A stretch of 64,000 bases of DNA, taken from contig CAZVUO010000001.1 in NCBI GenBank assembly GCA_964630235.1, positions 917,446 to 981,445 on the forward strand. The letters are read 5' to 3'. Of this stretch, positions 11,095-58,558 are shown piece by piece. Below the pieces are notes generated by a model, which searched no databases, had not been told where the DNA came from, and worked only from the letters and a program-made list of their open reading frames with translations. The position numbers and the translations under genes were made by a program. Within the stretch, counting starts at the first letter, position 1; every line of letters starts with the position of its first letter. The DNA is from an uncultured bacterium (GTDB taxonomy: Bacteria > Oederibacteriota > JAAXVQ01 > JAUVAV01).

Positions 11095-11240
11095 TCCATC
11101 CCCTCCGCGGGGGGTGAATGCGGAATGGTTGCTCCGTGGATGTCGCCAAGAGGGGGTAGCGAGGGGTGCGGTTGGTATCCCGGTGGGAGCCCTTCGGTCC
11201 CCAAAGGGACTTCTTTCAGTCGCCGGGGGGCTCCATCGCT
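11095..11240 (+). repeat. F-family repeat, copy 1 (in the dnaE/polC leader)
   Basis: CCCCTCCGCGGGGGGTGAATGCGGAAT..GGATGTCGCCAAGAGGGGGTAGCGAGGGGTG...cUUCGg hairpin...GGGGGGCTCCAT. Confidence 0.7.
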
Positions 11241-11320
11241 TCCGCAGGACATTCCGGGTCCTCCAGGTAAAATATTCAAAAAAAGATTTTCTGTTCATTT
11301 GTGGATTTTTTGCTACAATG

Positions 11321-11329
11321 TTTTTGAAT
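11321..11329 (+). promoter_or_regulatory. Putative extended -10 promoter element (TGcTACAAT) in an AT-rich block upstream of polC
   Basis: The only AT-rich stretch in the intergenic region (11270-11340), about 120 nt upstream of the polC start. Confidence 0.3.
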
Positions 11330-11456
11330 TGGTGCGTGCTACCGCGGTCATTCACGACTCTCTCTCCCCAGCCAGTGACAGACCTCCTCCCCTGCGCCGA
11401 ATGCCGCGTGCCGGATATATGTCAGCGCCGCCTCAACCACTCGGCTGGAGTCGCGG

Positions 11457-14400
11457 ATGAGCCCGGAAATCATTGTCGAACCCGCTGGCCTGACACCCCG
11501 GTTGCAGACCCTGATCGAGAACCTTGACCTTTCCCCCGAACATAAAAAGACCCTCCTGGACGCCCAAATCCGTTCCATCCGCATCAGCGCCCAGCCGGCC
11601 TTGCTCATCGTCCGCCTGGACGCCGCGCAGCTCCTGCCCGCCGACGGCCTGGAACAGCTGCGCGCCCGTCTCGGCGAGATGCTGGAAACCAGCGGCGGGA
11701 CGCAGATGGTGTGGGATGTGTACTATCCCGAGGGCGCCGTGACGCCCGCCCAATACTTGGAGGCCCACTGGCACGACCTGCTTGGCATCCTGTCCCGGCA
11801 CGTGCAAATGGCCCGCGCGTATCTGTCCCTGATCCAGGTGTCCAACGGCGAGCCCAATCGCCTGCGCCTGGCTCTGCCCAATGCCATGACCCTTTCCGCC
11901 CTGCAGCGCCAGTCCGGCGACAAAATCTTGAGCCAGCTCCTTACCGAACGCCTGAGCCGGGCCGTGAGCGTGCGCTTCGAGATCGGCCACTTCGAGGAAG
12001 AGCTCAAGCGCCGCGAGGCCCTGTACCAGAAGCGCCTGCGCGAGGAACTGGAGCGCATTCAGAACGAGAGCGCTGACGCACCCGCGGCCGGAACCGCCGC
12101 CTGCGAGGGCGGTCCGGCCTCGGCCCCCGCCCCCCTGCGCGTGCTCTTGGGACGCAAAATCGCCAGCCCGCCCCGCCCCATCGCGAGCCTCACGGAAGAA
12201 GAGGACCAGGTGGTGCTGGAGGGCGAGCTCATCACTTTCGAATGCAAGACCTTGCGCACCGGCCGCCAGCTCGCCCTCATGGACGTGTACGACAAGACCG
12301 GCACCTTGAACGCGCGCCTGTTCGTGGACGCCGGCAAAACGCTCTCCCCGGAGATCAAGGTCGGCGCCTACGTGCGGATGCGGGGCACCCTGCAGTTCGA
12401 TAAATTTTCCCGCGACCTGTGCCTGCTGGTGCGGGACGTCTCCCTCGGCGCCAAACCCGAGCGGCGGGACTGCGCCGCGGAAAAGCGGATCGAGCTCCAC
12501 GCCCACTCCCATATGAGCGCCATGGACGCCCTGGTCGGCGTGACCCAGCTGGTGGCCCGGGCCGCGGCCTTTGGCCATCCGGCCGTGGCCTTGACCGACC
12601 ACGGCGTGGTGCAGGGCTTTCCCGAAGCCATGGCCGCGGGAGAGAAACACAAGATCAAGGTCATCTACGGCATGGAAGGCTACCTGGTGGAGGACGAATG
12701 GCTCGGCATCAAACCGCCGCAGAAACCGCCCCGGCCTTACCATATCTGCCTGCTGGTGGCCGAACCCCGCGGCATTCGCAACCTCTACCATCTGGTGTCG
12801 GAAGCTCACCTCGGTCACTTTTATTACCATCCGCGCATTCCCCGGTCCTTGCTGGAGAAATACCGCGAAGGACTGCTGCTGGGCTCGGCCTGCGAGCAGG
12901 GCGAGCTCTTCCGCCGCCTGCGCGAGGGCGCCGCGGGGGAAGAACTCGAAACCATCGCCCGGCGCTACGACTATTTGGAGATCATGCCGCGCGAGAACAA
13001 CCGGTTCCTCATCCGTGAGGGCCTCGTGGCCGGCGAGGACAAGCTCCTGGCCATGAACCAGCGGATCTATGAACTGGGGAAGCGGCTGGGGCTGCCCGTG
13101 GCGGCCACGGGCGATGTGCATTTTCTCGAACCCGGGGACGAAGTGTTCCGCTCGATCCTCCACGCGGGCATGGGTTATGCGGACGCGGACCTGCAGGCGC
13201 CGCTGTATTTCAAGACCACCGAAGAGATGCTCGGGGAGTTCGCCTATCTGGGCCCTGACGGCGCGTACGACGCGGTCGTGGCCGCTCCGCGCAAAATCGC
13301 GGAGCGGATCGGCGACATCCAGCCCGTGAAGAAAAAGTTCCATCCCCCCAAACTGCCCCGGGCCGAGGAGGAGCTCAAATCCACGGCCCTGGCCAGGGCC
13401 CGCGAGGTGTACGGCGGTTCCCTGCCCGAAGAGGTGGAGAAGCGCCTCCGGCGGGAGATCACGGCCATCACCAAGAACCACTTTGCCTCGCTCTTCATGA
13501 TCGCGCGGCGCCTGGTGCAGAAATCCCTGGCGGACGGCTACCTGGTCGGCTCGCGCGGCTCCGTGGGCTCCTCTCTCACGGCCACCATGCTGGGTATCAC
13601 GGAGGTCAACCCCTTGCCCGGGCATTATCTGTGCACCGCCTGCCGGCACCATGCGTTTCCGGGAGACGGCCGCATCGGGCCCGACCTGCCGGACAAGTCC
13701 TGCCCGGCTTGCGGCCAGGTCATGGAAAAGGAGGGGTTTGACATCCCCTTCGAGGTCTTTATGGGTTTCGAGGGTGATAAACTGCCGGATATTGACCTGA
13801 ATTTTTCGGGAGAGTATCAGGCCAAGGCGCACAAGGCCCTGGAGGAAATATTCGACCGCGCGCATATTTTCCGCGCGGGCACCATTTCCACGGTGGCCGA
13901 CCGCATTGCCTACGGATTTGTCAAAAAATACCTCGAGGACAACAAACTGGTGGTGCGGGAGGCCGAGGTCAACCGGCTCACCCGCGGCTGCGCCGGCGTC
14001 AAGAAAACCACGGGCCAGCACCCGGGCGGCATCATGATCGTGCCGCAGGACATGGAAATTTATGATTTCACGCCCGTGCAGCGGCCGGCCGACGACCGCA
14101 GTTCGGAGATCGTGACCACCCACCTGGACTACCACGCCATTCACGACGCGCTGCTCAAGCTGGACCTGCTCGGCCATGACGATCCCACGTCCCTCAAGCG
14201 CCTGGGCGATCTGACCGGCGTGGACGTGCGCTCCATCCCGCTCGACGATCCGGAGACTCTGGCCATTTTTTCGGGCGTCTCCAGCCTGGGGCTCGCGGCC
14301 GAGGCCATCGGCACGCCCATCGGCACCTTGGGCATTCCGGAGTTCGGCACCGAATTTGTGCGCCAGATGCTGGAAGCCACCCGGCCCAAGCTGTTTTCCG

Positions 14401-15209
14401 AGCTGGTCCGGATCTCCGGACTCTCGCACGGAACGGATGTGTGGCTGAACAACGCCGCGGACCTGATTCGCGAGAAGACCGCCACGCTGTCCACGGTCAT
14501 CTCGGCGCGCGACGACATCATGAATTACCTGATTACCCGCGGCATGGATCCGGCCCAGGCATTCAAGATCATGGAATCCGTGCGCAAGGGCAAAGGCCTG
14601 TCGCCTGAACAGGAGCAGAGCATGCGCGATGCGGCGGTGCCGTCCTGGTACATTGACTCCTGCAAGAAGATCAAGTACATCTTTCCCAAAGCCCACGCCG
14701 TGGCCTACTGCCTGATGGCCTTCCGCATCGCGTATTTCAAGGTACACCATCCCACGGCTTTCTACGCCAACTACTTCACCCTGAACGCGGAGTTCTTCGA
14801 CGCCCAGCTGGTGGCGCGCAGCGGCGCGCAGAAAGTGGCCGAGCGGATCCAGGAACTGCGCGGCCTGCAGGACGCCACGGCCAAGGACAAGCACACCCTG
14901 ACCGTGCTGGAAGTGGCGCGTGAGGCGTTCGCCCGCGGCCTGCGCTTCAAACCCGTGTCGCTGATGGAGTCGGACCCGGCGAAGTTCCTGATTGTGGCCG
15001 AAGGCGTACTGCTCCCGCCCCTGGTTTCACTCTCGGGCCTGGGCGCGACCTGCGCCCAGCGCATCGTGGAGGAACGGTCCAAAACCTCATTCCGCTCCAT
15101 CGAGGATCTCTCGCGCCGCACGGGCGCCAACAAGAACGTGGTCGAGATCCTCATCCAGCACGGCTGCCTCGGCATCCTCCCCAAGACCGACCAGACCACC
15201 CTGTTTTAA
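11457..15209 (+). CDS. polC: PolC-type DNA polymerase III alpha subunit, apparently lacking the 3'-5' exonuclease insertion
   Basis: N-terminal domain, then an OB fold, then a PHP domain (IELHAHSHMS). PolC-specific GSRGSVGSSLTATMLGITEVNPLP and the CxxC...CxxC zinc module. C-terminal tandem HhH. 1250 aa, with no FDxETTG exonuclease motif between the PHP halves. Confidence 0.85.
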   Translation: MSPEIIVEPAGLTPRLQTLIENLDLSPEHKKTLLDAQIRSIRISAQPALLIVRLDAAQLLPADGLEQLRARLGEMLETSGGTQMVWDVYYPEGAVTPAQYLEAHWHDLLGILSRHVQMARAYLSLIQVSNGEPNRLRLALPNAMTLSALQRQSGDKILSQLLTERLSRAVSVRFEIGHFEEELKRREALYQKRLREELERIQNESADAPAAGTAACEGGPASAPAPLRVLLGRKIASPPRPIASLTEEEDQVVLEGELITFECKTLRTGRQLALMDVYDKTGTLNARLFVDAGKTLSPEIKVGAYVRMRGTLQFDKFSRDLCLLVRDVSLGAKPERRDCAAEKRIELHAHSHMSAMDALVGVTQLVARAAAFGHPAVALTDHGVVQGFPEAMAAGEKHKIKVIYGMEGYLVEDEWLGIKPPQKPPRPYHICLLVAEPRGIRNLYHLVSEAHLGHFYYHPRIPRSLLEKYREGLLLGSACEQGELFRRLREGAAGEELETIARRYDYLEIMPRENNRFLIREGLVAGEDKLLAMNQRIYELGKRLGLPVAATGDVHFLEPGDEVFRSILHAGMGYADADLQAPLYFKTTEEMLGEFAYLGPDGAYDAVVAAPRKIAERIGDIQPVKKKFHPPKLPRAEEELKSTALARAREVYGGSLPEEVEKRLRREITAITKNHFASLFMIARRLVQKSLADGYLVGSRGSVGSSLTATMLGITEVNPLPGHYLCTACRHHAFPGDGRIGPDLPDKSCPACGQVMEKEGFDIPFEVFMGFEGDKLPDIDLNFSGEYQAKAHKALEEIFDRAHIFRAGTISTVADRIAYGFVKKYLEDNKLVVREAEVNRLTRGCAGVKKTTGQHPGGIMIVPQDMEIYDFTPVQRPADDRSSEIVTTHLDYHAIHDALLKLDLLGHDDPTSLKRLGDLTGVDVRSIPLDDPETLAIFSGVSSLGLAAEAIGTPIGTLGIPEFGTEFVRQMLEATRPKLFSELVRISGLSHGTDVWLNNAADLIREKTATLSTVISARDDIMNYLITRGMDPAQAFKIMESVRKGKGLSPEQEQSMRDAAVPSWYIDSCKKIKYIFPKAHAVAYCLMAFRIAYFKVHHPTAFYANYFTLNAEFFDAQLVARSGAQKVAERIQELRGLQDATAKDKHTLTVLEVAREAFARGLRFKPVSLMESDPAKFLIVAEGVLLPPLVSLSGLGATCAQRIVEERSKTSFRSIEDLSRRTGANKNVVEILIQHGCLGILPKTDQTTLF

Positions 15210-15251
15210 TTAATCCATATGCCTCCGCAGGGGCGGACCCCTGTGTCCGCC

Positions 15252-15285
15252 CAAAAAGAAAAAGGGCAGGCACATAGGCCTGCCC
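15252..15285 (-). terminator. Rho-independent terminator for the minus-strand murB-GNAT operon
   Basis: GGGCAGGC-ctatgt-GCCTGCCC hairpin on the minus strand followed by TTTTTCTTTTT. About 70 nt downstream of the GNAT stop. Confidence 0.55.
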
Positions 15286-15353
15286 CTACGAAAAATATCA
15301 GGATATTTGCAAATGGATGGTAGGGGCGGCTCTGCGTGGCCGCCCGAACATGG

Positions 15354-15863
15354 TTATATGTTTACGTTGAGTGCCAGCCAGCGCTTATCCGCCAGCACCA
15401 CCGAGGTTTCGCGGTGCGTGGGCGTGAGCTGCCAGTAGCGTTCCAGGAGCGCCCAGCCCTGTTCCCGCGGCAGGAGGGTGAAGCCGTGGCGCTGGTAAAA
15501 ACGGAGGGCCCAACCGGCCGCGGCCCAGGTGCCGACCAGCACGGGGGTCGTGCCGGCGCGGGACAGCAGGTGGCCGAGCAAGCGTCCGCCCACGCCGGAC
15601 CGCTGGCAGGCCGTGCGCACGTAGGCGTGGCGGATCAGCATCACGTCGCCTTTGTCCTGCAGGCCCATGACGCCGGTCAGCCGGCCGTTGTCCTCGTACA
15701 CCCAGAACTCCACCCCGGCCGCGATCTCGTGTTCCACCTCGGAAGGCGTGAAGTACGGCTCATGCCAGCATGCGGACGGGATCACGCCGCGGTAAGCCCG
15801 GGCCGCGTCCGCGACGATGTCCGCGATCATATAGGCTTCCTGGATATCAGCCGGCCGGATCAT
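15354..15863 (-). CDS. GNAT family N-acetyltransferase
   Basis: Acetyl-CoA binding pattern (RSGVGGRLLGHLL). Start MIRPADIQ. ATGA overlap with the murB stop. Confidence 0.7.
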   Translation of the reverse strand: MIRPADIQEAYMIADIVADAARAYRGVIPSACWHEPYFTPSEVEHEIAAGVEFWVYEDNGRLTGVMGLQDKGDVMLIRHAYVRTACQRSGVGGRLLGHLLSRAGTTPVLVGTWAAAGWALRFYQRHGFTLLPREQGWALLERYWQLTPTHRETSVVLADKRWLALNVNI

Positions 15864-16774: not shown

Positions 16775-16874
16775 GCCTGACCTCGAGGACAAACCTTGCC
16801 ATCGAGGGTATCATCGCACACCTGTATGAGGATTCAAAGCGGAAAACGGTTTAAAAGCAAGCTTAAAAGTGCCA

Positions 16875-16903
16875 TTGACATTTGTGGACAAAAGGATCAA
16901 AAT
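16875..16903 (+). promoter_or_regulatory. Putative sigma-70 promoter for the regulator/Ehr-like operon (TTGACA-N17-CAAAAT)
   Basis: Perfect -35 about 50 nt upstream of the regulator ATG, in the divergent region with murB. Confidence 0.35.
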
Positions 16904-16953
16904 GACCATCTTTTAGACAGGCGGAGAAAAATGTCAGTAGCCAAGAGGATTCC

Positions 16954-26709: not shown

Positions 26710-28883
26710 CCCACCAAAAAGTCCGTGTTTTTGAACTGGCCAAGGAACTCAAATTGACCTCCAAGGAGCTGATGGGCGAACTGGAGAAGATGCGCATTCA
26801 GGTTAAAAGCCACATGAGCGTGCTGGAAGACGAGACCGTGGCCTATATCAAACGCCACTGGGGCGAGGATGAGATCTTCGAGGATACCGTGGTTCCCGGC
26901 ATGACCATGGCCGCGCCCCGGCCGGCCGCGGCCGATGTGGTCCAGACCACGACGGTCCAAGCACCTGTGGTGGAAGAAGAACCGGCTCCGTCCCGGCCCG
27001 AGCCCGTGTACGTGCCTGAGCCCCTGTTTGAGCCTGAGCCCGAGCCAGAGCCTGAACCCGAGCCAGAACCCAAGTCCGCCGCCATGGCGGCTCCGGTGCC
27101 GTCCGCGCCGCCGAAATCCAGGGAAACGCTCCCGCCCCTGCGCCTGCCCAGCGCGGTGTCGGTGGGCGACGTGGCCGAACGCCTGAGCGTGAAGCCGGCC
27201 GAGGTCATCAAGAAACTCATGGGCCTGGGCGTGTTCGCCACCATCAACCAGCGGCTGGATGAAGACACAATCGAGATCCTGCTTTCCGAGTACAATTTCC
27301 GGCCGGAATACGAGGAGCTGTACGGCGAGGATCTGCTGGCCCAGGAAGAGGTTGTGGACCGGCCCGAGGACCTGCAGCCGCGGCCGCCCGTGGTGACCAT
27401 CATGGGTCACGTCAACCACGGCAAGACCTCTCTCCTGGACGCGGTCCGGGAGACCAACGTCATGGACGGCGAGGCCGGCGGCATCACCCAGCATATCGGC
27501 GCGTACCAGGTCAAACTGCCCAAGGGCTACGTGACCTTCCTGGACACACCCGGCCACGAGGCCTTCACCACCCTGCGCGCCCGCGGCGCCCAGGTGACGG
27601 ACGTGGTCGTGCTGGTGGTGGCGGCCGACGACGGCGTGCAGCCGCAGACCATCGAGGCCATTGACCACGCCAAAGCGGCCAACGTGCCCATCATCGTGGC
27701 CATCAACAAAATGGACAAACCCGGCGCCGATCCCAGCCGCGTGCGCCAGGAACTCACCAAGTACAACCTGCTCTCCGAGGAGTGGGGCGGCAAAACCATT
27801 TTCGTGGAAATTTCGGCGAAGAAACGCCAGGGGCTGGAAAAACTTCTGGAAATGATCCTGCTCGAAGCCGAAATGCTGGAGCTCAAAGCCAACCGCAAAG
27901 CCCATGCCCGGGGCACGGTCATCGAGGCCAAGCTGGACCGGGGGCGCGGGCCGGTGGCCACGGTGCTCGTGCAGCGCGGCACGCTCAAGGTCGGCGATCC
28001 GGTGGTGACCGGCGTGCAGTTTGGACGCGTCCGGGCGCTCATGAACGAACGCGGGGCCATCCTCAAGACCGTGGGGCCGGGCATGCCGGCCGAGGTGCTG
28101 GGACTTTCGGGCGTGCCCCAGGCCGGCGACCTGTTCCAGGTTCTGGCCAGCGACAAGCTCGCCCGGCAGATCGCCCTGAAGCGCCAGATGATCAAGCGCG
28201 AGCAGGATTTGAGCGCCAGCCAGAAGATCAACCTCGACAACCTCAAGGACCAGATCAAAGAGGGGACCATCAAGGAACTGAAAATCATCATCAAGGCCGA
28301 CGTGCAGGGATCGGCCGAGGTGCTGGCCAATTCGCTCGAGGGTCTGTCCACCGAAAAAGTGCGCCTGACCAGCATCCACAGCGCGGTCGGCAACATCACG
28401 GAGAGCGACATTCTCCTGGCCACGGCCAGCAACGCCATCGTGCTCGGCTTCAACGTCAAGGCCGAGGCCGGCGTGGAACAGGTCGCTCAGCGGGAACAGG
28501 TGGACGTGCGCATCTACTCGGTGATCTACGACGTGGTGAACGACGTCAAGGCGGCCATGGAAGGCCTGCTGGAACCCCACTACCACGAGGTGCCGATCGG
28601 CCAGGCCGAGGTGCGCAGCGTCTTCAAACTCTCTTCGGGCGTGACGGCGGCCGGGTCCCAGGTCTCAAGCGGCAAGATCACGCGCGGCGCGCAGGCCAAA
28701 GTGGTGCGACGCGGCCAGATCCTGCACACGGGCAAGATCGAGTCCCTCAAGCGCTTCAAGGACGATGTCAAGGAAGTCCCGGCGGGGATGGAGTGCGGCC
28801 TCTCCGTGAGCGGCTTTAAAACGTACGAGCCGGGGGACGTGATCGAAGCCTTCGTGCTCGAAGCCGTGGCGCAGAAGCTCTGA
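26706..28883 (+). CDS. infB: Translation initiation factor IF-2
   Basis: GTPase motifs ([18 protein letters not shown]) and an (EP)9 linker. ATGA overlap with nusA. Confidence 0.95.
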
Positions 28884-28920
28884 GGCGCGCGCTCCTTCTC
28901 CCGCACCGTGGACACCGGAC

Positions 28921-29001
28921 GCTTGCTTGCGAGCGGGATCGCCCGGCGCAGGGGATGTCGCCTTGCCCCGAAGAAATACGTGCCGAGAAAAGGGGGGCTC
29001 C
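28921..29001 (+). repeat. F-family repeat, short copy 5 (its 3' module contains the DUF503 RBS and ATG)
   Basis: CAGGGGATGTCGCC...AAAAGGGGGGCTCCATGG. Confidence 0.55.
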
Positions 29002-29283
29002 ATGGTCGTCGGCCTGTTGAGCGGGGACCTGTTCTTCCCCGAGAACCACAGCCTGAAGAACAAGCGGATGCTGTTGAGAAAATTGATGGAGCGGCTCAAG
29101 CGCGACCTCAACGTCTCCGTGGCCGAGGTCGAGCACCAGGACCTCTGGCAGCGCTCGCGGATCGCGGTGGCGTGCGTGAACACCAGCAGCCGCGAGGCGA
29201 ACGCCACCCTGAACGAAGCGCTGAAACTGATTGACCAATTCCCCGAAGCCGAGCTCGTGGACCACGTCTTTGAGCAGCGCTGA
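29002..29283 (+). CDS. DUF503 (YlxP-like) protein
   Basis: MVVGLLSGDLFFPENHSLKNKR...; conserved position between infB and rbfA. Its ATG lies inside the GGGGGCTCCATG 3' module of an F-family repeat. Confidence 0.7.
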   Translation: MVVGLLSGDLFFPENHSLKNKRMLLRKLMERLKRDLNVSVAEVEHQDLWQRSRIAVACVNTSSREANATLNEALKLIDQFPEAELVDHVFEQR

Positions 29284-29440
29284 CACCGAACCCCATCCCC
29301 TTCGCAGGATCGACAGTCCAGCCGCTTCGCACCCAGGGATGGACTGCGGCGGGGAGGTCGCCTGGCTCTGAGAGTGTCCTGGAAACGGAAGGGGGAGGCT
29401 CCATTCCCTATGCCGTGGACAACAGCCTCTGCTCGATAAA

Positions 29441-29530
29441 AAAAATCGCCCGGTCTGGGGGATGTCGCCCCGACAGGAATAACCTATATGGGCGCCGTGG
29501 GCGCAGAGGGACTTCCCCTAAAGGGGTCGC
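29441..29530 (+). repeat. F-family repeat, short copy 6 (in the rbfA leader)
   Basis: ATCGCCCGGTCTGGGGGATGTCGCCCCGACAGG, which parallels copy 5. The rbfA start reuses GGGAGGCTCCATG. Confidence 0.5.
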
Positions 29531-29594
29531 CCTGCCACTAGCGATTATTTGCATTGAAAGGGGGGTATCCCGGCCAAGACCGCCGGGAGGCTCC

Positions 29595-29954
29595 ATGAAA
29601 CCCAAACGCGTTGACCGCCTGGCCTCGCAGCTGGTGCGGGAAATATCGGACATCCTCCTGCGCAAACTCTCGGACCCCCGGCTCTCCTGGGTCACGATCA
29701 CGCGCGCCGCGATCACGCCGGACCTGCGGGAGGCCAAAGTCTATATCCTGACCCTGGCGGGCGGCGACCAGCGGGCGCAAACCCTGGAGGGCCTGGCGCA
29801 TGCCGCCGGCTTCATCCGGCACGAGCTCGGCCGCCGGGTGGAGTGGCGCGTGCTGCCGGAATTGCATTTTCTGGTTGACGAGGAAGCCGAGCGCACGGAG
29901 CAGCTGCTTCGGAAACTCTCTCCGCCTCCACCGGCAGAAAAAACCGAGGAGTGA
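29595..29954 (+). CDS. rbfA: Ribosome-binding factor A
   Basis: MKPKRVDRLASQLVREISDIL...; GGGAGGCTCCATG initiation region. Confidence 0.85.
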   Translation: MKPKRVDRLASQLVREISDILLRKLSDPRLSWVTITRAAITPDLREAKVYILTLAGGDQRAQTLEGLAHAAGFIRHELGRRVEWRVLPELHFLVDEEAERTEQLLRKLSPPPPAEKTEE

Positions 29955-32995: not shown

Positions 32996-33136
32996 GTTGC
33001 CCATCCCCTCCGCGGGGGGGGGGCGAATGCGGAATCGCTGTTCTGGGGATGTCGCCCAGAGGGGTAGCGAGGGGTGAAGTTGGTACTCCGGGTTTTGTCC
33101 CTAAAGGGACTTCTTGCAGTCGCCCGGGGGCTCCAT
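32996..33136 (+). repeat. F-family repeat, copy 2 (upstream of hup)
   Basis: About 85% identical to copy 1. Confidence 0.7.
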
Positions 33137-36277: not shown

Positions 36278-36395
36278 TGTCACCCCGGCATGCCTATAGC
36301 CGGGGTCCAGATGCGAACTCCCCCTTTTCCCCCTCTTTACCAAAGAGGGGGCAGGGGGGAGTTGGATTCCGGCTAAAACCATGCCGGAATGACGA
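36278..36395 (+). repeat. R-family structured repeat, copy D (with the hairpin module)
   Basis: Near-identical to copy B over the internal module. Confidence 0.7.
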
Positions 36396-36456
36396 TCAAC
36401 TTAAAACAGCGCAGCGACACAATCTCAAGGGGAAGAGACGAAGGGGAGGGTGAAGA

Positions 36457-38178
36457 TTATTTCCGCTTGAACAGCTTGCGCAGTTCGGTAACGGACCGTG
36501 TGTTGAGCACGTCCGCCGGCTCCAGCCACCCGCGCCGCGCCTGATTGATCCCGTAGCGCAGGGTGCGCAGGCCGACCGGGCTGTGCGCGTCCGAGGAAAC
36601 AGCCACCCGCACGCCTGCTTCCTTGGCCTGGCGGCAGGCCGTGTCCGTGGCGTCCAGACGCTCGGGATGGGAGTTGAGCTCGAGAAAACAGCCGCGTTCC
36701 TTCGCGCCGGCGATCACGCGTTCCAGCTCCAGCGGGTAGGGGGGGCGGGAGTTCAGCAGGCGGCCGGTGGGGTGGCCGAGAATGCTGAAATAGGGATTGT
36801 CCATGGCGCGCAGAATGCGCTCGGTTTGCTTGCCCGCGGGCAGGTTAAATTTGTAGTGGATGGACCCCACGGCGTAATCCAGGCGCGCCAGCACCTCATC
36901 CGGCATATCCAGCCGGCCGTCCTCCAAAATGTCGGCTTCCAGTCCTTTTAGCAGCGTGAAATTCTTAAGCCGCGCGTTGGCCGCGTCAATGGCGTCGAGC
37001 TGTTTGAGCAGGCGTTTGGCGTCCAGGCCGTGGGCCACGGTCACATGCTGGGAATGGTCGGTAATGCCCAGGTACGCATAACCGAGGGCGCGGGCGGCCT
37101 CGGCCATTTCCAGCAGGCCGGCTGTGCCGTCCGATTCCTCGGTATGGCAGTGGAGGTCTCCGCGCAGGTCCGGCAGGCTTACCAGGCGCGGCAGGAGCCC
37201 CTGGGCCGCCCGCTCCAGTTCGTCCCCCGCTTCCCGCAGTTCGGGCTCGATGTAAGCCAGGCCGAGGCGGCGGTAGATTTCCTCCTCGGTTTTGCCTGCC
37301 ACGGACCGTGTTCCCTTGAACAGCCCATACTCATTGAGTTTGTAGCGCTTTTTTTGCGCCAGCTTGCGCACCGCGATGTTATGCGCCTGAGAGCCGGTGA
37401 AATAGTGCAGGGCCGCGCCGAAACTCTCCTGCGGCACGGCGCGCACGTCCACCTGCAGGTCCGAGCGCAAAACGACCGTGGCGCGGGTCGGACCCAAGGC
37501 CTGCACGCGCGCGATGTCCGGGTAGCGGCTGAAAAATTCCAGGGTCTTGTCAGGCAGGCGGCTGGCGACCAGGATATCCACATCGCCGATGGTTTCCTTG
37601 CGGCGGCGGAAGCTGCCGGCCGCGGCCGTGGACTCCACGCCCGGGGCGGCCCGCAAATAGACCAGGAGCGCTTCCACGGCCGGCTCGGCGCTGGCCCACA
37701 GCGTGCGCTCGGGATTGGCCATGCGGTGCGCGGCGCCGGACAGGATCTGCTCCTCCAGCTTGGGGCCGAAGCCGGGGAGCGCCCGCACCTTGCCGGCTTG
37801 GGCCGCGCGTTTAAGGTCGTCCAGCGTTCGCGGACGCAGGCTCGCGGCCAGCTGTCTGACCCGCTTGGGTCCCAGCCCCGGCAGTTTCAGCATCGCGAGC
37901 TGCACAGGCGGGATCTTGGCCTCCAGCTCCGAAAGCATTGTCAGCGCACCGGTGGCCAGGAGTTCCTGGATCTTTTCGGCCAGGTCCGGGCCGATGCCCG
38001 GCAGACCGGTCAGGCCGTTCTTGCGGGCGGCGAGTTCGGACAGGCTGCGGGGCAGGTTGGCAATGGTTTGGGCCGCAGTATGATACGCGCGGATGCGGAA
38101 GGGATTGGCGCCTTCCAGCTCCAGCAATACGGCCACCCGCTCGAAGCGTTCCGCGATTTCCTGGTTTGTGAGGGGCAT
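36457..38178 (-). CDS. polX: DNA polymerase X family protein with a C-terminal PHP (3'-5' exonuclease/phosphoesterase) domain
   Basis: HhH motifs (GLPGIGPDLAEKI) and a Pol beta-like nucleotidyltransferase (GSFRRRKETIGDVDIL). PHP with HCHTEESDG. Confidence 0.88.
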   Translation of the reverse strand: MPLTNQEIAERFERVAVLLELEGANPFRIRAYHTAAQTIANLPRSLSELAARKNGLTGLPGIGPDLAEKIQELLATGALTMLSELEAKIPPVQLAMLKLPGLGPKRVRQLAASLRPRTLDDLKRAAQAGKVRALPGFGPKLEEQILSGAAHRMANPERTLWASAEPAVEALLVYLRAAPGVESTAAAGSFRRRKETIGDVDILVASRLPDKTLEFFSRYPDIARVQALGPTRATVVLRSDLQVDVRAVPQESFGAALHYFTGSQAHNIAVRKLAQKKRYKLNEYGLFKGTRSVAGKTEEEIYRRLGLAYIEPELREAGDELERAAQGLLPRLVSLPDLRGDLHCHTEESDGTAGLLEMAEAARALGYAYLGITDHSQHVTVAHGLDAKRLLKQLDAIDAANARLKNFTLLKGLEADILEDGRLDMPDEVLARLDYAVGSIHYKFNLPAGKQTERILRAMDNPYFSILGHPTGRLLNSRPPYPLELERVIAGAKERGCFLELNSHPERLDATDTACRQAKEAGVRVAVSSDAHSPVGLRTLRYGINQARRGWLEPADVLNTRSVTELRKLFKRK

Positions 38179-38304
38179 GGGTACTTATAATAAACCACCT
38201 CAAACCACGTTGCACGGAAAAATCAAAAGGGTCGCGGCGCTTTCTGCCTGATCACCCGTTCGTTGAGCGATTGCCGAGCCTGTCGAGGCAGTCGAAACGA
38301 ACGT

Positions 38305-38435
38305 CCCCTCCCCTCCGCAGGGCACCCCGAGCTTGCTCGGGGGTGAATGCGGAATCGTTGCTCCGGGGATGTCGCCAAGCAGGGGTAGCGAGGATTGAAG
38401 TGGGTACCCCGGGCCCTTCGGCCGGGGGGCTCCCT
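38305..38435 (+). repeat. F-family repeat, copy 3 (upstream of rtcB)
   Basis: Same core GGGTGAATGCGGAATCGTTGCTCCGGGGATGTCGCCAAG, ending GGGGGGCTCCC. Confidence 0.7.
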
Positions 38436-38506
38436 CGACAGGCTCGGGGACCTAGAAAGATGTTTCCCGCATTGAACCTCTGCGGTCTTGGCGTTATACT
38501 CCTGCC

Positions 38507-39964
38507 ATGAAGACTTCCGCCGAACCCCCGAAACTCGAACCCCTTGCCCCAAACCTGTGGCGCATTCCCCGGGACCAGCATCCCGGCATGCGCGTGGACG
38601 GCCTGGTCTTCGCTTCTTCCGAACTGCTTCAAGACGTGTTCCGTGACCAGGCGCTCAGCCAGGTCATCAACGTGGCCCATTTGCCCGGCATCGTCAACGC
38701 TTCCTTGGCCATGCCGGACATCCACTGGGGATACGGTTTTCCCATCGGCGGCGTGGCGGCCTTTGACGCGGAGACCGGCGTGGTCTCGCCCGGCGGGGTG
38801 GGATATGACATCAACTGCGGCGTGCGCCTGCTCGCCTCCTCGCTGGAGCAGGATGAAGTGGCGCCCAAGGTAAAGGACCTGCTCGCCGTCCTTTACCGGA
38901 ACGTGCCGGCTGGCGTGGGCAGCGAAGGCCGGATCACGCTCAAGCCCGCGGAGCTCAAGCGCGTGCTGGAGCTGGGGTCGCGCTGGGCGGTCCAGCAGGG
39001 CTACGGCTGGCAGGAGGACCTCGCGCGCACGGAAAACGAGGGGCGCCTGGCGGCGGACAGCGAGCTGCTCAGCGCCAGGGCCAGGGAACGCGGCCTGGGA
39101 CAGCTGGGCACGCTCGGGTCAGGCAACCATTTTTTGGAAGTCCAGGCTGTGGACGAGATCTTCGACCAGGCAGGGGCCGAAGCCTACGGCTTGCGCACGG
39201 GGCAGGTGACGGTCATGATCCACTGCGGTTCGCGCGGCCTTGGGTATCAGGTGTGCGAGGATTTCCTGGCGGTCCTGCGGCGCGCCACGCGCACGTATGG
39301 TTTCGATTTACCTGACCCCCAGCTGGCCTGCGCGCCGGTCAGCTCGCCAGAGGGGCGGGAATATTTGGCGGCCATGGCCGCGGCCGCGAATTACGCCTGG
39401 GCCAACCGCCAGTGCATCACCCACTGGGTGCGGGAGGCTTTTCAGGAAGTGCTGGGGAAGCCGGCCGAACGGTTGGGCCTGCACCTGGTGTACGACGTGG
39501 CGCACAACATCGCCAAACTGGAAACGCACCGCGTGAAGGGAAAAGAACGGCTCGTGTGCGTGCACCGCAAGGGCGCGACCCGCGCGTTTCCGGCCGGGCA
39601 TCCCGAGGTGACCGCGCGCTACCGCCGGGTCGGCCAGCCGGTGCTCATTCCCGGCAGCATGGGCACGGCTTCTTACGTCTGCGCGGGCGCGGCCGGAGCC
39701 ATGGAACAGAGCTTCGGCTCCACGGCGCACGGCGCGGGCCGCGTGCTCTCGCGCCACGCGGCCATCCGGCAGGCCCAGGGCCGCTCCATCGGACAGGAGC
39801 TGGCTGCCCAGGGCATCCAGGTCATGGCCCGGGGCCGGGAGACTTTGGCCGAAGAGGCGCCGGCCGCGTACAAGGACATTGACGAGGTGGTGGCGACCGT
39901 GGATGAGGTTGGGCTGTCTAAAAAAGTCGCCCGGTTGAGGCCGTTGGGGGTCGTAAAAGGCTGA
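38507..39964 (+). CDS. rtcB: RNA-splicing ligase RtcB
   Basis: IHWGYGFPIGGV, YDINCGVR and GSGNHF motifs. Confidence 0.92.
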   Translation: MKTSAEPPKLEPLAPNLWRIPRDQHPGMRVDGLVFASSELLQDVFRDQALSQVINVAHLPGIVNASLAMPDIHWGYGFPIGGVAAFDAETGVVSPGGVGYDINCGVRLLASSLEQDEVAPKVKDLLAVLYRNVPAGVGSEGRITLKPAELKRVLELGSRWAVQQGYGWQEDLARTENEGRLAADSELLSARARERGLGQLGTLGSGNHFLEVQAVDEIFDQAGAEAYGLRTGQVTVMIHCGSRGLGYQVCEDFLAVLRRATRTYGFDLPDPQLACAPVSSPEGREYLAAMAAAANYAWANRQCITHWVREAFQEVLGKPAERLGLHLVYDVAHNIAKLETHRVKGKERLVCVHRKGATRAFPAGHPEVTARYRRVGQPVLIPGSMGTASYVCAGAAGAMEQSFGSTAHGAGRVLSRHAAIRQAQGRSIGQELAAQGIQVMARGRETLAEEAPAAYKDIDEVVATVDEVGLSKKVARLRPLGVVKG

Positions 39965-39983
39965 ATGTACCCCTGTCCCCACA

Positions 39984-40019
39984 CCCCTCTTTGCTAAAGA
40001 GGGGCAGGGGGAGATTACT
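39984..40019 (+). repeat. Hairpin repeat module (CCCCTCTTTgctaAAGAGGGGCAGGGGGAGATTACT)
   Basis: Perfect 9-bp stem. The same module is found at 59878-59913 (reverse) and, diverged, at 40053-40088, 59806-59840 and inside R copies B and D. Confidence 0.6.
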
Positions 40020-40121
40020 TATCATCCGTCCAGTCGGCAGTTGAGGTTTATGAGTAATCCCCCTTCGCCCCCTTTAGAAAAGGGGGCAGTCAACAGCAAG
40101 TGGGGAATAAAAGGTATACAC

Positions 40122-42064: not shown

Positions 42065-42181
42065 CGTCACCCCGGCCCAGTCCTGTCTGATCTGGGCCAG
42101 GGCGAAAGCCGGGGTCCAGTATCAGGCATTAATCAAATCAAATTCCCTGGATTCCGGCTAACTACATGCCGGAAAGACGAG
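42065..42181 (+). repeat. R-family structured repeat, copy E
   Basis: CGTCACCCCGGC...GCCGGGGTCCAG...CCTGGATTCCGGC...GCCGGAAAGACG. Confidence 0.7.
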
Positions 42182-42276
42182 CGGACGGGATTTCCGTGGC
42201 AGGATTATTTACCTGCGATATCAGGTGAATACTATCACTACACATGCCGGTAGCAGCGGTATTTCCGAGGGGTCGC

Positions 42277-47510: not shown

Positions 47511-47530
47511 CAAAGTGACCGTCAGTGCGA

Positions 47531-49070: not shown

Positions 49071-49095
49071 CCGGCGGCGGAAGCCAATCCTCTTT

Positions 49096-49334
49096 GTCAT
49101 TGCGAGCGACCGGAGGAAGTCCCATAGCTATCCGGTCGGGGCGACCGGAGGAAGTCCCATAGCTATCCGGTCGGGGCGACCGGAGGAAGTCCCATAGCTA
49201 TCCGGTCGGGGCGACCGGAGGAAGTCCCATAGCTATCCGGTCGGGGCGACCGGAGGAAGCGAAGCAATCGCGCTTTTCTCAAAGTCGAGATTGCCGCGTC
49301 GCCCTTCGGCAAGCCCGGGGCTTCTCGCCATGAC
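49096..49334 (+). mobile_element. MITE-like element (terminal repeats GTCATTGCGAG / CTCGCCATGAC) carrying an internal tandem expansion
   Basis: Flanks match the reverse complement of the 58561-58659 copy. The interior has 4.4 perfect 35-bp repeats. Confidence 0.6.
49107..49259 (+). repeat. Perfect tandem repeat, 35-bp unit x 4.4 (CGACCGGAGGAAGTCCCATAGCTATCCGGTCGGGG)
   Basis: Four identical units plus a 13-bp partial unit. No spacers, so this is not a CRISPR array. Confidence 0.9.
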
Positions 49335-51951: not shown

Positions 51952-51957
51952 AAAGAC

Positions 51958-54302: not shown

Positions 54303-55750
54303 ACCGGACCGTCAAGCATTACAGCCTGCTGACGCTCGGCTGGCTCCTGGTCGCCAGCCTCATGCTGCTCGGTCAGGATCCTGAAGTCCCCAACGGCTTC
54401 GCGCTGCTGCTGCTCCCGCTCGTCATCCTGGGCGGCGCCCTGGAGATTACCGCCGGCATCGTGGTCACCAGCGCGATGGCGGCCGCTTCTCTGGTGGCCG
54501 GTTTCGGGCTGCACTGGCTGCCGCAGCCGGCCGCGGTGACCACGCTGGTGGCGGTCAGCCTGGCCGCGGGGCTGGCGGCCCTGGCGGCACAGGACCGGGA
54601 GGGGCGGCTCAAGGCCGAGACGCGCGAGCGCGAGCCTCTGGAGCACGAACTTCTCCGCGTGGAACGGAAAGGGTACCAGATCCGCCGCCAGATCGAGGGA
54701 TACAAGGAAAAGCTGGACCACCTGATCAGCTTGTACGCAGTGGCCAAAAAGCTTTCGGGCACCATCAAGTTGGACAGCATGCTGGACGAGGCGCGCCTGG
54801 AAGTGGCCCGGCTCTTTCCCCAGCACTTCTCCAGCCAGAGTGAGGAGGACGCCCGCCTGGTCTTCTATGTGCCGGACGAGGAGTCCGGTGATTTCCAGCG
54901 CATGGGATTGCGCGGCCACGAGGTGTCGGACGAAGGCTTCCCGGACCAGGTCCCGGCCGCGGAAATTCTCGACTGGCTGGGCGAATCCTACAGCGCCATC
55001 CGGATCAAGGACATGCGCCAGGACCCGCGTTTCCGCTACCTGACCCAGCAGAGCCAGTTCCGGTCCCTGTTGGCCATTCCGCTGATCATGCACGACATTG
55101 TCATTGGCCTGATGCTGCTCGCCACGTCCCAGCCCGGGAGTTTCACACCCACGGATTTCACCCAGGCCGAGACCCTGGGCAAACAGATCGTCTTCGCCCT
55201 GCGGAAATCCCTGCTCTACCGCAAGGTTCAGACGCTCTCTTTCACGGACAGCCAGACCGGCCTGTACGTGCACCGCTATTTCCACGAGCGGCTGCGCGAG
55301 GAGATCCACCGCGCGGAACGCTACCGCCAGCACCTGTCCCTGATCATGCTCGACCTGGACCATTTCAAGCGCGTCAACGACCAGCACGGGCACCAGGTCG
55401 GGGATGCCGTCCTGGCGGAGGCCGCGAGCCGGATCCAGGAAATGGCCGGTCCCACGTCCCTGGTGGCGCGCTATGGCGGCGAGGAATTCGCGGTGCTCCT
55501 GCCCAATACCCCGCTGGCCAGGGCCGCGGTCATCGCGCAGAGCATCAATACCTATCTCAAGGCCACGCCCATTGACGCCGGGGAGCTGAAACTGACCTTG
55601 ACCATCTCCGCCGGGGTTAGTTCGTATCCCGAACACGCGCTGTCCCGGGAGGCGTTGATCGGCGCCGCCGACATGGCCCTCTACCAGGCCAAGAATGACG
55701 GCCGGGACCTGGTCCGGTTCTTTCAGGAAGGATATCCAAAAAAAAGTTGA
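54299..55750 (+). CDS. Membrane-anchored GAF-GGDEF diguanylate cyclase (tandem paralog)
   Basis: Same architecture, RYGGEEF. ATGA overlap with the upstream paralog. Confidence 0.8.
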   Translation: MNRTVKHYSLLTLGWLLVASLMLLGQDPEVPNGFALLLLPLVILGGALEITAGIVVTSAMAAASLVAGFGLHWLPQPAAVTTLVAVSLAAGLAALAAQDREGRLKAETREREPLEHELLRVERKGYQIRRQIEGYKEKLDHLISLYAVAKKLSGTIKLDSMLDEARLEVARLFPQHFSSQSEEDARLVFYVPDEESGDFQRMGLRGHEVSDEGFPDQVPAAEILDWLGESYSAIRIKDMRQDPRFRYLTQQSQFRSLLAIPLIMHDIVIGLMLLATSQPGSFTPTDFTQAETLGKQIVFALRKSLLYRKVQTLSFTDSQTGLYVHRYFHERLREEIHRAERYRQHLSLIMLDLDHFKRVNDQHGHQVGDAVLAEAASRIQEMAGPTSLVARYGGEEFAVLLPNTPLARAAVIAQSINTYLKATPIDAGELKLTLTISAGVSSYPEHALSREALIGAADMALYQAKNDGRDLVRFFQEGYPKKS

Positions 55751-55774
55751 CAGGGTGCGGGTCCTTGGCTATAC
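55746..55774 (+). promoter_or_regulatory. Putative sigma-70 promoter of rho (TTGACA-N17-TATACT), followed by a leader of about 240 nt
   Basis: Perfect -35 with a 5/6 -10 at canonical spacing. The long leader is typical for autoregulated rho. Confidence 0.5.
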
Positions 55775-56011
55775 TTCAGGCACCTACCCAAATGGCGCGA
55801 TCGGATGCCTAATCATCACGGCACACTAATCCCATAGGATCCATTCCCCAGGGGTTTCATGAGGGGTTCCGCATCTTGCACGCTCAATTCATTCCGAGGA
55901 TGAACCGATACGGGTGGTCAATCTCCAATCCAGCAGGTGTTTCCGCTTGAATTGTGTCCAATGGACAAATGCGCCGACGGCCGATAACCGTCCACGCAGG
56001 AGGGAAAGGGC

Positions 56012-57259
<1,248 letters not shown>

Positions 57260-57397
57260 TACGCTCTCCATGCATGCAGAACTCCCCCCGTCCCCCTGGG
57301 GGGAGTTGGCGCAAAAACCCTTGTAAAACCCCGGAGGCTATGTTAGGATTTGCCCCTTCCAGCCTGCCAGGCTGGGATAATGTAGGAGGATGGTCCC

Positions 57398-57607
57398 ATG
57401 AAAGAAAAGTTGCACCCCAAATACGAGCCCACGAAATTCGTGTGCGCCTGCGGCAATGTGATCGAAACCCGGTCCACGGTTCCGCCCACCGTGCGCGTGG
57501 AAATCTGCTCCCAGTGCCATCCGTTCTTCACCGGCACGCAGAAGCTGGTGGATACGGCCGGCCGCGTGGAGAAATTCCGGCGCCGTTACAACGCCAAGAC
57601 CACTTAG
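57398..57607 (+). CDS. rpmE: 50S ribosomal protein L31
   Basis: MKEKLHPKY...CxCG...[10 protein letters not shown]. Confidence 0.92.
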
Positions 57608-57650
57608 CCCTCGCCTGAGCCCAGTCTGAGCCAAATATTTCGGTGGCCCC

Positions 57651-58337
57651 ATGCAGGTCGTATTGCTCAAATCCCCTCAGGACCCGGAGCATATGGTGGC
57701 GCAAGCCGCGCGCCTGTGCTATTCCGCCGCGGATCTCGAGGCCATCGCCGAGAAACTGACCCCGGAGAAAACCTCCTCGTTCATCCGTCACCTGGTGAAG
57801 CTCGGTCATCATTCGGCACTGGAGCACGCCGTGTTCACCTTCGGTGTGGAGGGCGTGTCCCGGGCTTTGACGCACCAATTGGTGCGCCACCGCCTGGCCT
57901 CCTATTCCCAGCAAAGCCAGCGTTATGTCACCCTGCGGGATTTCCCCTATGTGGTGCCGCCCACCGTGGCGGCGCGGCCGGACCTGGCCAAGCGGTTCGA
58001 CGGGGCCCTGGCCGCGGTGGGCGAGGCCTACGCGGCCCTGCTGGCCGCCGGGGTGCCGGCCGAGGACGCCCGCTATCTTCTGCCCAACGCCTGCGAGACC
58101 AAGATCGTGGTCACGATGAACAGCCGGGAGCTTCTCCATTTTTTCCGCCTGCGCTGCTGCAACCGGGCGCAGTGGGAGATCCACGGCCTGGCGGACCGCA
58201 TGCTGGGCCTGGTCAAGCCGCTTGCCCCGAATATCTTTCACCAGGCCGGGCCCGGTTGCCTGCAGGGTCCCTGTCCGGAAGGGGAAATGACCTGCGGAAA
58301 AACGGCCGAAGTCCGGGCCACCTATCAGGCGCTGTAG
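57651..58337 (+). CDS. thyX: FAD-dependent thymidylate synthase ThyX
   Basis: RHRxxSxxxxSxRY motif (LVRHRLASYSQQSQRY). Confidence 0.92.
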   Translation: MQVVLLKSPQDPEHMVAQAARLCYSAADLEAIAEKLTPEKTSSFIRHLVKLGHHSALEHAVFTFGVEGVSRALTHQLVRHRLASYSQQSQRYVTLRDFPYVVPPTVAARPDLAKRFDGALAAVGEAYAALLAAGVPAEDARYLLPNACETKIVVTMNSRELLHFFRLRCCNRAQWEIHGLADRMLGLVKPLAPNIFHQAGPGCLQGPCPEGEMTCGKTAEVRATYQAL

Positions 58338-58439
58338 CTCAAACCACAGGTTCCAGGCGCGGAGGGGCCAACCGCCCGCGCCGAGGACTTGTGGTTTTTT
58401 TATAGGATGATTGAGTCTTCCTTTAGCCCTGCAACGCCG

Positions 58440-58558
58440 AAAGCCCCGGGCTTGCTCGGGGATGAAGGCCACGACGGCGTTGCAGGATGTCGCCTGCCGA
58501 ACTGGCCGGAGACGCAGGGTTGTTTCGGGGTGCCCCGGCCTTCGGCCGGGGGGCTCCA
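58440..58558 (+). repeat. F-family repeat, copy 4 (diverged; upstream of prfA, abutting a MITE-like element)
   Basis: GCAGGATGTCGCC...CCCCGGCCTTCGGCCGGGGGGCTCCA. Confidence 0.55.

Follow-up and report, generated by a model that had tools for sequence, protein, structure and literature searches.

Do short conserved sequences that stand repeatedly ahead of unrelated genes belong to those genes as leaders, or are they DNA that was inserted there? This question is raised by a stretch of 64,000 nucleotides (nt) from an uncultured bacterium (GenBank assembly GCA_964630235.1, contig CAZVUO010000001.1, positions 917,446 to 981,445 of the forward strand; the whole stretch is called the window), in which a repeat, the F family, had been described from the letters alone (the sequence-only reading) as a leader of about 140 nt, either mobile or cis-regulatory. 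The F family is considered here as probably a non-autonomous mobile DNA element of about 100-190 nt, common to FCPU426, Omnitrophota and some other uncultured bacteria. Its mobility, its target site, its fold and its reconstruction of ATG start codons were established by comparing its copies and the loci that hold them.

Copies in the window

Loci of relatives were fetched via PrfA and via the PcrA/UvrD helicase, and synteny around the copies is conserved. MAG080 designates the FCPU426 metagenome-assembled genome (MAG) GCA_040756875.1 (loci L016, L131 and L139), and L140, L133, L136, L137 and L141 are contigs from other relatives. The window itself is from an FCPU426 bacterium, and its PrfA is 89% identical to the MAG080 one; the window genome, L140 and MAG080 share 80-87% identity in the flanking genes and are roughly equidistant from one another. 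Copies were searched in the window and in the relatives' contigs using an nhmmer profile built from 61 family members, and their exact limits were set by comparison with empty sites in relatives, the 5' boundary of c5 being approximate. The window holds seven copies, all on the + strand and none on the - strand, which are numbered c1 to c7 in order of discovery. Six of them had been listed in the sequence-only reading and were located where it placed them, on the + strand; the seventh (c6) had been missed. In the following list, LE and RE are the left-end and right-end hairpins of the F element, the RE hairpin being helix P3 of the fold given below.

11100..11236, + strand: c1, type A, 137 nt; 5' hairpin deleted, extra P3-loop insert of about 40 nt (~11184-11223); host CCAT (11096-11099) precedes and CCAT ends it, with a flank identity of 6 nt (CTCCAT); lies 8 nt past the stop codon of a MORN/OMP gene and 220 nt ahead of the Pol III alpha gene, with a promoter-like site (11246-11273) between it and that gene
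~28886..29003, + strand: c5, about 118 nt, in the infB-DUF503 spacer; P3 hairpin lost, in contrast to its MAG080 orthologue; the terminal CCAT of c5 and a host G form the DUF503 ATG (29002-29004)
29297..29404, + strand: c6, 108 nt; P3 hairpin lost; block 1 in the variant form GGAGGTCGCC; preceded by host CCAT (29293-29296), 10 nt past the DUF503 stop codon
29405..29596, + strand: c7, 192 nt, tandem partner of c6, whose terminal CCAT is its left flank; nested insert of 62 nt (29470-29531); its terminal GGGAGGCTCCAT and a host G form the Shine-Dalgarno sequence and ATG (29595-29597) of rbfA, the product of which matches Pfam RBFA
33005..33136, + strand: c2, type A, 132 nt, in the ribF-hup spacer; extra P3-loop insert (~33093-33123); CCAT (33001-33004) precedes and CCAT ends it, the terminal ATG opening an open reading frame (ORF) of merely 11 codons
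38310..38435, + strand: c3, type A, 126 nt, complete fold, between the divergent genes polX and rtcB; CCCT (38306-38309) precedes and CCCT ends it
58427..58559, + strand: c4, type C, 133 nt; long P1 stem CCTGCAACGCC/GGCGTTGCAGG; ends in CCAC; lies past the thyX terminator, 138 nt ahead of prfA

Two blocks are invariant in all copies: GGAKGTCGCC (block 1) and, 30-116 nt downstream, GGRGGCTCC (block 2), usually followed by AT. Block 1 (GGATGTCGCC, at most one mismatch) has 22 matches in the window against 8.3 ± 3.2 expected; block 2 (GGGGGCTCCA) taken alone is not enriched there (7 matches against 13 expected), and each of the seven GGGGGCTCCA-like matches is paired with a + strand block-1 match 30-116 nt upstream. 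The common 5' sequence quoted in the sequence-only reading is found in c1-c3 only, c4 having a different 5' half and c5-c7 further variants, and the GC hairpin with a CUUCGG loop is present in c3, in c4 and, in c1, within its larger P3-loop insert. Copies c1 and c2 have lost the LE hairpin.

The description of the copies as immediately upstream of genes is loose. Distances of 220 nt and 138 nt separate c1 and c4 from the next gene, and c3 precedes a promoter-like site of rtcB (TTGAAC-17-TATACT at 38472-38500, the -10 box ending 6 nt before the ATG). Copies c1, c5 and c6 begin 3-35 nt past an upstream stop codon, c2 and c4 both follow terminators, and the ends of c1, c3 and c4 carry no ATG. As a separate observation, the rtcB region (38472-38509) has a layout of the leaderless type, TTGAAC-17-TATACT followed after 6 nt by the ATG, and the divergent polX (38176-38215) has an AT-rich -10-like box a few bases ahead of its start codon.

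Orthologous spacers and empty sites

Five spacers that hold copies were compared with their counterparts in relatives (a slash marks the insertion point, brackets enclose the element).

infB-DUF503: 118 nt with c5 in the window genome; 7 nt in L140, ctctgaggaccCCAT/Ggtcgt (also written gaggaccCCAT/Ggtcgt); an orthologous copy in MAG080; 97 nt and no copy in L141
DUF503-rbfA: the c6 and c7 tandem in the window genome; 10 nt in L140, cccgctCCAT/Gaaaccc; a clearly homologous tandem pair in MAG080; 272 nt and no copy in L141
ribF-hup: ggttgcCCAT(c2...GGCTCCAT)GCAAGTAACGG in the window genome; ggtcgtCCGT/GCAAGTAACGG in L140; no copy in MAG080; no copy in L141, where synteny differs
polX-rtcB: gaacgtCCCCT(CCCCTCCGC...GGGGGGCTCCCT)CGACAGGCTCG in the window genome, with c3; gaacgtCCCCT/CGACAGGCTCG in L140; no copy in L141; in MAG080 an independent copy, of another subtype and elsewhere in the spacer, 10 nt from the start of polX
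thyX-prfA: c4 in the window genome; absent in MAG080, L133, L136 and L137, the thyX terminator being conserved in the window genome, MAG080, L133 and L136

Copies c2 and c3 are thus present in the window genome only and have exact empty sites in L140 (CCGT/GCAAG and CCCT/CGACAG, respectively). The profile scan found no copy in L140 (8.7 kb), L141 (21.6 kb), L131, L133, L136 or L137. This pattern of presence and absence across orthologous spacers, which are either empty or occupied by different copies, leads to the conclusion that the copies are discrete insertions of mobile DNA, and it bears out the mobile or duplicated element that the sequence-only reading had proposed as one option. According to these comparisons, copies were gained independently in closely related lineages. 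Precise excision in L140 was considered and cannot be claimed: the window genome, L140 and MAG080 being about equidistant, a gain after the L140 split explains the data equally well.

Integration takes place in one orientation, directly 3' of a CCAT-like tetranucleotide, as deduced from empty and filled sites and from the seven + strand copies. At four of the five resolved sites the host tetranucleotide that precedes the element (CCAT; CCCT for c3) equals its last four bases, and tandem copies share one CCAT in both the window genome and MAG080. A classical cut-and-paste element, that is a miniature inverted-repeat transposable element (MITE) moved by a DDE transposase with duplication of a 4-bp CCAT target, would account for the identical tetranucleotides that flank c2, c3 and c6/c7, for the 6 nt at c1, and for the variant CCCT on both sides of c3. 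It is nevertheless highly improbable, for the elements are strictly asymmetric, insert in a single orientation and have no terminal inverted repeats (4-8 identities out of 20 when the first 20 nt of c1, c2, c3, c4 and c6 are set against the reverse-complemented last 20), and the 3' CCAY is kept where the 5' flank differs. Thus the MAG080 polX junction, gatAT(...CTCCAT)cataag, has AT alone in common (ATAT/CCAT), and type C and Omnitrophota copies have the 5' flanks TTAT, TTGT, TTAG or ...CGA against the conserved CCAY end, with 0-1 nt in common (flank/end TTAG/CCAC for c4 and CGA/CCAC in Omnitrophota). Because of these differing flanks, we provisionally take CCAY as belonging to the element, the target being merely similar to it, rather than as a true 4-bp duplication.

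Occurrence outside the window

A genome scan was performed on one genome per species using the pattern GGATGTCGCC-N28-58-GGGGGGCTCC. About 20 of the 82 stretches returned are clearly F elements, most others being chance matches within genes. Nine copies are in MAG080, where all nine pattern matches lie on one strand; others occur in three more MAGs of FCPU426, in several of Omnitrophota, and in one MAG each from 'Ignavibacteriaceae' and the delta-proteobacteria. About 35 additional family members were found on metagenome contigs, and a scan of viral contigs gave one match, judged to be due to chance. Copies of an Omnitrophota-type subfamily (L090, L092, L093, L101 and L104) are near-identical with unrelated flanks, which reads as the signature of recent multiplication. 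The architecture is clearest in a compact form of about 122 nt (L091, L096, L098, L106, L108, L120 and L126).

Several of these copies are placed otherwise than ahead of a gene: that of L042 lies between convergent genes, those of L052 and both of L101 are antisense to both neighbours, and that of L067, from an Omnitrophota MAG (locus positions 4621-4721, - strand), is an antisense insertion within pheT that keeps the reading frame and lengthens the Pfam tRNA_synthFbeta (CLM) domain by about 30 residues (...VEPPGKARDTNPHPTRGATSRTPGQ...). On one metagenome contig (L116), two convergent copies, 2154-2288 (+) and 2453-2589 (-), are 165 nt apart; both orientations can thus occur close together outside the window.

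The suggestion made with the sequence-only reading that Rfam might identify a known family was followed up. Rfam 15 gave no hit in the window at gathering thresholds, and only noise over 28700-29700 (c5-c7) at E values up to 10. Eight related loci searched at E values up to 5 gave nothing at the elements, and 6S RNA was recovered elsewhere in two of them, which indicates that the search works. These 6S RNA genes (RF00013, 85 and 78 bits) are at 2962-3142 (-) of L086 and 5249-5433 (+) of L067, a few kb from F copies and without overlap, a proximity that is probably coincidental. A literature text search for two motifs returned unrelated papers only, and nothing relevant was found on motifs or repeats in FCPU426 or Omnitrophota; with no paper and no Rfam family found, the F family is considered as previously undescribed.

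Conserved fold

Automatic consensus folding failed because the subfamilies differ by insertions and deletions of whole hairpins and the sequence is GC-rich: RNAalifold on a MAFFT alignment of 16 mixed copies recovered just P3 and part of the LE hairpin, and on 7 compact copies it gave a long-range fold without covariation support. Single-sequence folding, uninformative because the sequences are GC-rich, gave energies no better than those of shuffled sequences, except for c4 (z = -2.9). The structure was therefore written by hand on a compact alignment of 7 sequences and tested by covariance-model alignment, the model being searched in 490 kb of related loci, where it gave 49 matches at E < 0.01.

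The element begins with CCCCTYCGCAGG... and ends with ...GGGGGGCTCCAT, the conserved ends being CCCC... at 5' and ...GGCTCCAY at 3'. In helix P1 the 5' strand (C)AUCCCNNN pairs with NNNGGGAU(G) and closes a 5' domain holding the LE hairpin, which is a GC hairpin capping a GCA-UGC pairing (P1b) about 15 nt from the 5' end. It is followed by the conserved junction GAUGAAUGCG and a small hairpin, P1d. The first half of the invariant GGGAUGUCGCC closes P1 and its second half opens P2, a small hairpin beginning in GUCGCC, after which a linker leads to P3. This RE hairpin consists of GG-NR-CCMCGGGC, a loop and GCCCGGGG-GG-CUCC, followed by the terminal AY, and ends 8 nt short of the 3' terminus ...GGCUCCAY. 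The predicted P3 agrees with the guess in the sequence-only reading that a hairpin pairs with the G-run. A conserved small ORF starting at the AUG of GGGAUGUCGCC was ruled out by frame-breaking indels between copies.

In the alignment of the 49 hits, standard pairs occupy 88.7% of the cells; column shuffles gave 76.7%, and sliding the partners by 1-3 columns gave 42-52%. Changes on both sides occur in 27 of the 37 pairs, none of 500 shuffles was as good on any observed measure, and compensatory changes are found in every helix except the two-pair extension of P3. The copies thus have the common secondary structure whose absence would have spoken against the sequence-only reading. The LE and RE hairpins are alike (CCMCGGSC...GSCCGKGG; helices 3 and 7, both supported by covariation), and their first four stem bases agree more within copies (0.85) than when permuted (0.77; 3 of 2000 permutations as high). 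Where the last host bases face the AU(G) of GGGAUG, 40 of 47 rows have A-U or G-U and 27 of 47 have U-A; the UUGG directly 5' of P3 faces the terminal CCAU. Copy c3 has GUGGGUA 5' of P3 and a CCCU end, the other type A copies having GUUGGUA and CCAU; GUGGG/CCCU may thus be a compensatory change, a pattern from which L017 departs. A naive test of P1, comparing the longest ungapped complement to the GGG strand in own and swapped upstream regions (mean 7.0 against 6.0), was too noisy.

A fold of this kind may also act at the RNA level as part of the mobility machinery, either as the guide scaffold of a TnpB-type nuclease, borne by a miniature element and similar to omega-RNA or right-end element RNA (reRNA), or as a small ribozyme- or intron-like RNA, in which the CAU would be recognised by pairing with the internal AUG. 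The nucleotides of the junctions are invariant across phyla (GGGAUGUCGCC, GGGGGGCUCCA and GAUGAAUGCG) while the helices covary, G-U pairs are conserved, the sharp 3' boundary is followed by a variable flank as with reRNA guides, and the pairing counts just given for host CAU and the AUG next to P1 point the same way. Both variants are doubtful all the same: no tnpB, iscB or reverse transcriptase gene was seen adjoining any copy, no Rfam ribozyme matched, antisense copies within genes could not splice out, and the conserved 3' module of about 70 nt is short, known omega-RNAs being longer. Likewise the fold might itself be an active nucleic acid, namely a miniature guide-bearing or catalytic RNA or single-stranded DNA (ssDNA) that selects CCAU sites by pairing, to which a low probability is given; the internal AUG would then pair with host CAU and UGG with the element's own CCA terminus, and the element would play a part in its own insertion or retention, a scheme held to be just as tentative. 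Two further likenesses, to a tRNA minihelix with a CCA end and to hepatitis delta virus (HDV) or hammerhead ribozymes, were dropped for want of consistent features or Rfam support.

Rebuilt start codons and effect on genes

The terminal ...GGCTCCATG of the element coincides with the start codons of DUF503 and rbfA, as the sequence-only reading had it. These ATGs are present in L140 without the element, at CCAT/G empty sites, and the start codons are therefore older than the insertion, which split and rebuilt them: the element inserted between CCAT and G, and its terminal CCAT with the host G restores the ATG. Donation of a ribosome-binding site and start codon, as had been proposed, thus applies insofar as the element supplies the A, the T and the G-run; the start codon itself predates it. 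The native DUF503 Shine-Dalgarno sequence TGAGGA, which overlaps the infB stop codon in L140, is displaced by about 115 nt, and a G-run now lies 4 nt ahead of the ATG (GGGGGG in c5, GGGAGG in c6 and c7). The P3 hairpin missing from c5 and c6 is kept by their MAG080 orthologues (L139, 5522-5656 and 5943-6079); its loss looks like a deletion between two G-runs, which in c5 would leave a G-run unpaired before the DUF503 ATG. The element end is likewise fused to long ORFs in L016, L034, L048, L060 and L079. About a quarter of the copies terminate on a start codon, a share that, on a rough estimate, is in the range expected if tolerated insertions are those at intergenic CCAT sites.

Another candidate explanation is a leader RNA acting in cis (attenuator, riboswitch, thermometer or protein-binding leader), in which P3 would sequester the Shine-Dalgarno-like G-run and control translation of the downstream gene. 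P3 does pair the G-run, the ATG directly follows in c5, c7 and the five loci just named, covariation supports a conserved fold, most FCPU426 copies have the same orientation as the flanking genes, and the copies of infB-DUF503-rbfA are kept in two species. As a general role, which the sequence-only reading had offered as its second option, such regulation is nonetheless very unlikely. The genes downstream are functionally diverse (Pol III alpha, HU, RtcB, RF1, signal peptidase and an acyltransferase, and also BCCP, PBP2, RibD and surface proteins); the promoter-like site of rtcB comes after c3, and c2 and c4 come after terminators; the copies of L042, L052, L101 and L067 lie between convergent genes, antisense or inside pheT; close relatives have no element ahead of these genes, their spacers there being 7-10 nt; and Rfam gave no match. 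A CsrA-site reading of GGAUGU and a sigma-54 promoter likeness in P3 were also dropped, having neither consistent features nor Rfam support.

The position of c1, c5 and c6, 3-35 nt past the upstream stop codon, together with the strong GC hairpins, would suit another function, that of a host-domesticated element similar to repetitive extragenic palindromic (REP) sequences, scattered by transposition and then retained because it serves in transcripts as 3' stabiliser, terminator lacking a U-tract or site of intercistronic processing or insulation. The infB-rbfA operon copies, kept in two species with conserved blocks intact while other positions diverged, are in favour of it. This is considered unlikely, because individual copies do without one or other hairpin (c5 and c6 without P3, c1 and c2 without LE), antisense and in-ORF copies exist, and a simple stabiliser leaves the invariant single-stranded blocks unexplained. 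Such domestication is compatible with the mobile-element explanation and not exclusive of it.

Proposed mechanism and closest known systems

For the mobile-element explanation, a single-strand mechanism and a class of enzyme are proposed by analogy with known systems. The element would move as a folded single strand via an intermediate in which its ends are abutted (circle junction), these ends being ...GGCTCCAT/CCCCTCCGC... An enzyme supplied in trans would act on the element by recognising both hairpins and CCAU as the site of nicking or joining. The last three host bases (CAU) would pair with the AUG of the invariant GGGAUG and extend P1, and in the circularised element its own 3' end would make an equivalent pairing. 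The enzyme might be of the IS200/IS605 'peel and paste' type, or belong to another HUH-type or single-strand recombinase system. At a CC-ATG target the gene would survive because the element rebuilds the ATG, the G-run 4 nt upstream (GGGGGG or GGGAGG) being a substitute Shine-Dalgarno sequence; copies located after stop codons or terminators, before promoters, antisense or inside an ORF would be passengers.

Several observations weigh against the mobile-element explanation and this mechanism. No HUH/Y1 motif was found in 1.14 Mb of fetched sequence by a crude regular-expression search, and no transposase or recombinase is encoded within the window. The + orientation of all seven copies is confounded with gene orientation (about 40 of the 46 window genes are on the + strand), and the GC skew is weak. 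The CCAT/CCAT and CCCT/CCCT identities could be a 4-bp target-site duplication, and IS200/IS605 elements produce no such duplication. A HUH transposase should not require so elaborate a fold, and several conserved G-U pairs (e.g. 45 of 48 at the base of P3) suit RNA better than DNA. Finally, the covariation counts come from an alignment fitted to the model's own structure; the slid-partner control (42-52%) indicates that the signal is still real.

The set of features of the F family is closest to single-strand transposition of the IS200/IS605 type and to its miniature derivatives, the palindrome-associated transposable elements (PATEs). The IS200/IS605 elements have neither inverted nor direct repeats, carry subterminal hairpins, pass through a single-strand circle junction and insert with their left end 3' of a tetra- or pentanucleotide, a guide sequence adjoining the foot of the hairpin (PMC5027513). 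IS200/IS605 PATEs and IS608, which moves by 'peel and paste', share with the F family the absence of terminal inverted repeats, the asymmetric ends and two similar subterminal hairpins; IS200/IS605 elements also share the single orientation immediately 3' of a specific tetranucleotide, the possibility of tandem insertion, and a short complementarity between the target or cleavage sequence and an internal sequence beside a helix. Unlike them, the F family has no TnpA or TnpB found in the fetched loci or the window, and it has extra conserved helices, invariant junction blocks and a possible flank identity of 2-4 nt. In IS608 the target and the element end differ (TTAC and TCAA), whereas in F they are identical, and the candidate guide of F (AUG in GGGAUG) is 3' of the LE hairpin, at the base of the long closing helix, and not immediately ahead of the foot of the hairpin.

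Integron attC sites and group IIC introns are recognised as folded single strands and insert with a given orientation at a short core that is repeated at both boundaries, often after terminators or between genes. The F family resembles them in its proposed folded single-strand recognition, in oriented insertion at a core, in repetition of the core at the boundaries and in its frequent position between genes or past terminators. It differs from attC in having no RYYYAAC/GTTRRRY cores and no cassette ORF, and from group II introns in having no domains V/VI and in being far smaller, the Rfam intron models giving no match.

REP sequences and REP doublets forming hairpins (REPINs), which are mobilised by RAYT (HUH Y1) transposases (PMC3116915, PMC3733652), are likewise short and abundant repeats that form hairpins, carry no transposase gene and are usually located between genes and co-transcribed. 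A REP is a palindrome of 20-40 nt tagged with GTAG or CGTC, and a REPIN is a symmetric pair of inverted REPs; F copies are longer (100-190 nt) and asymmetric, lack these tags and target CCAT. The palindromic elements of Rickettsia and the MITEs of Coxiella (PMC5896051) are small structured elements that can occur in frame within coding sequence and alter gene ends, and the pheT copy of L067 behaves like them; they are palindromic or have terminal inverted repeats, unlike F, of which the in-ORF case is single.

Other small repeats

Some F copies in turn contain a smaller insert of another kind (...GGGACTTCYT..CAGTCGCC). The 62 nt in c7 (29470-29531) stand directly after GGATGTCGCC and end in GTCGCC, the MAG080 orthologue having no insert; in c1 (~11184-11223) and c2 (~33093-33123) the insert is in the P3 loop, and in L017 in the loop of the LE hairpin. 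A related 35-nt unit forms five tandem repeats at 49071-49280 (minus strand ATGGGACTTCCTCCGGTCGC). Another intergenic repeat family (3348-3469, 36279-36400, 4937-5042 and ~42100-42185) is composed of two hairpin modules, GTCACCCCGGC..GCCGGGGTCCAG and TGGATTCCGGC..GCCGGAATGACGA, the first of which directly abuts an F copy in MAG080 (L027, just 5' of it). Immediately 3' of c4 is a repeat of about 89 nt (58561-58649), with an inverted copy (89%) 9 kb away at 49246-49334; it is present in the thyX-prfA spacer of L133 and absent in MAG080, and is therefore also insertion-polymorphic. An inverted pair of 121 nt (39982-40102 and 59791-59911, 88% identical, 19.7 kb apart) with hairpins of the CCCCTCTTT..AAAGAGGGG type is probably yet another small repeat family.

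Significance

A repeat family of two poorly known candidate phyla, undescribed until now, is thus provided with a name and a model. It illustrates how insertions at gene starts can be tolerated, the combination of a CCAT target, a CCAT end and a G-run rebuilding both the start codon and the ribosome-binding site. It is also a warning for annotation, since these conserved structured "leaders" are insertions, and calls of start codons and operons in such MAGs are affected. If the enzyme is a HUH or single-strand recombinase with a programmable target of 3-4 nt, or if the fold is a guide RNA scaffold, the family would be of interest for genome-editing tools derived from transposons. Should the fold itself be active, the F family would represent a new class of small RNA- or DNA-guided mobile elements across FCPU426 and Omnitrophota whose copies can land precisely on a start codon while the gene survives.

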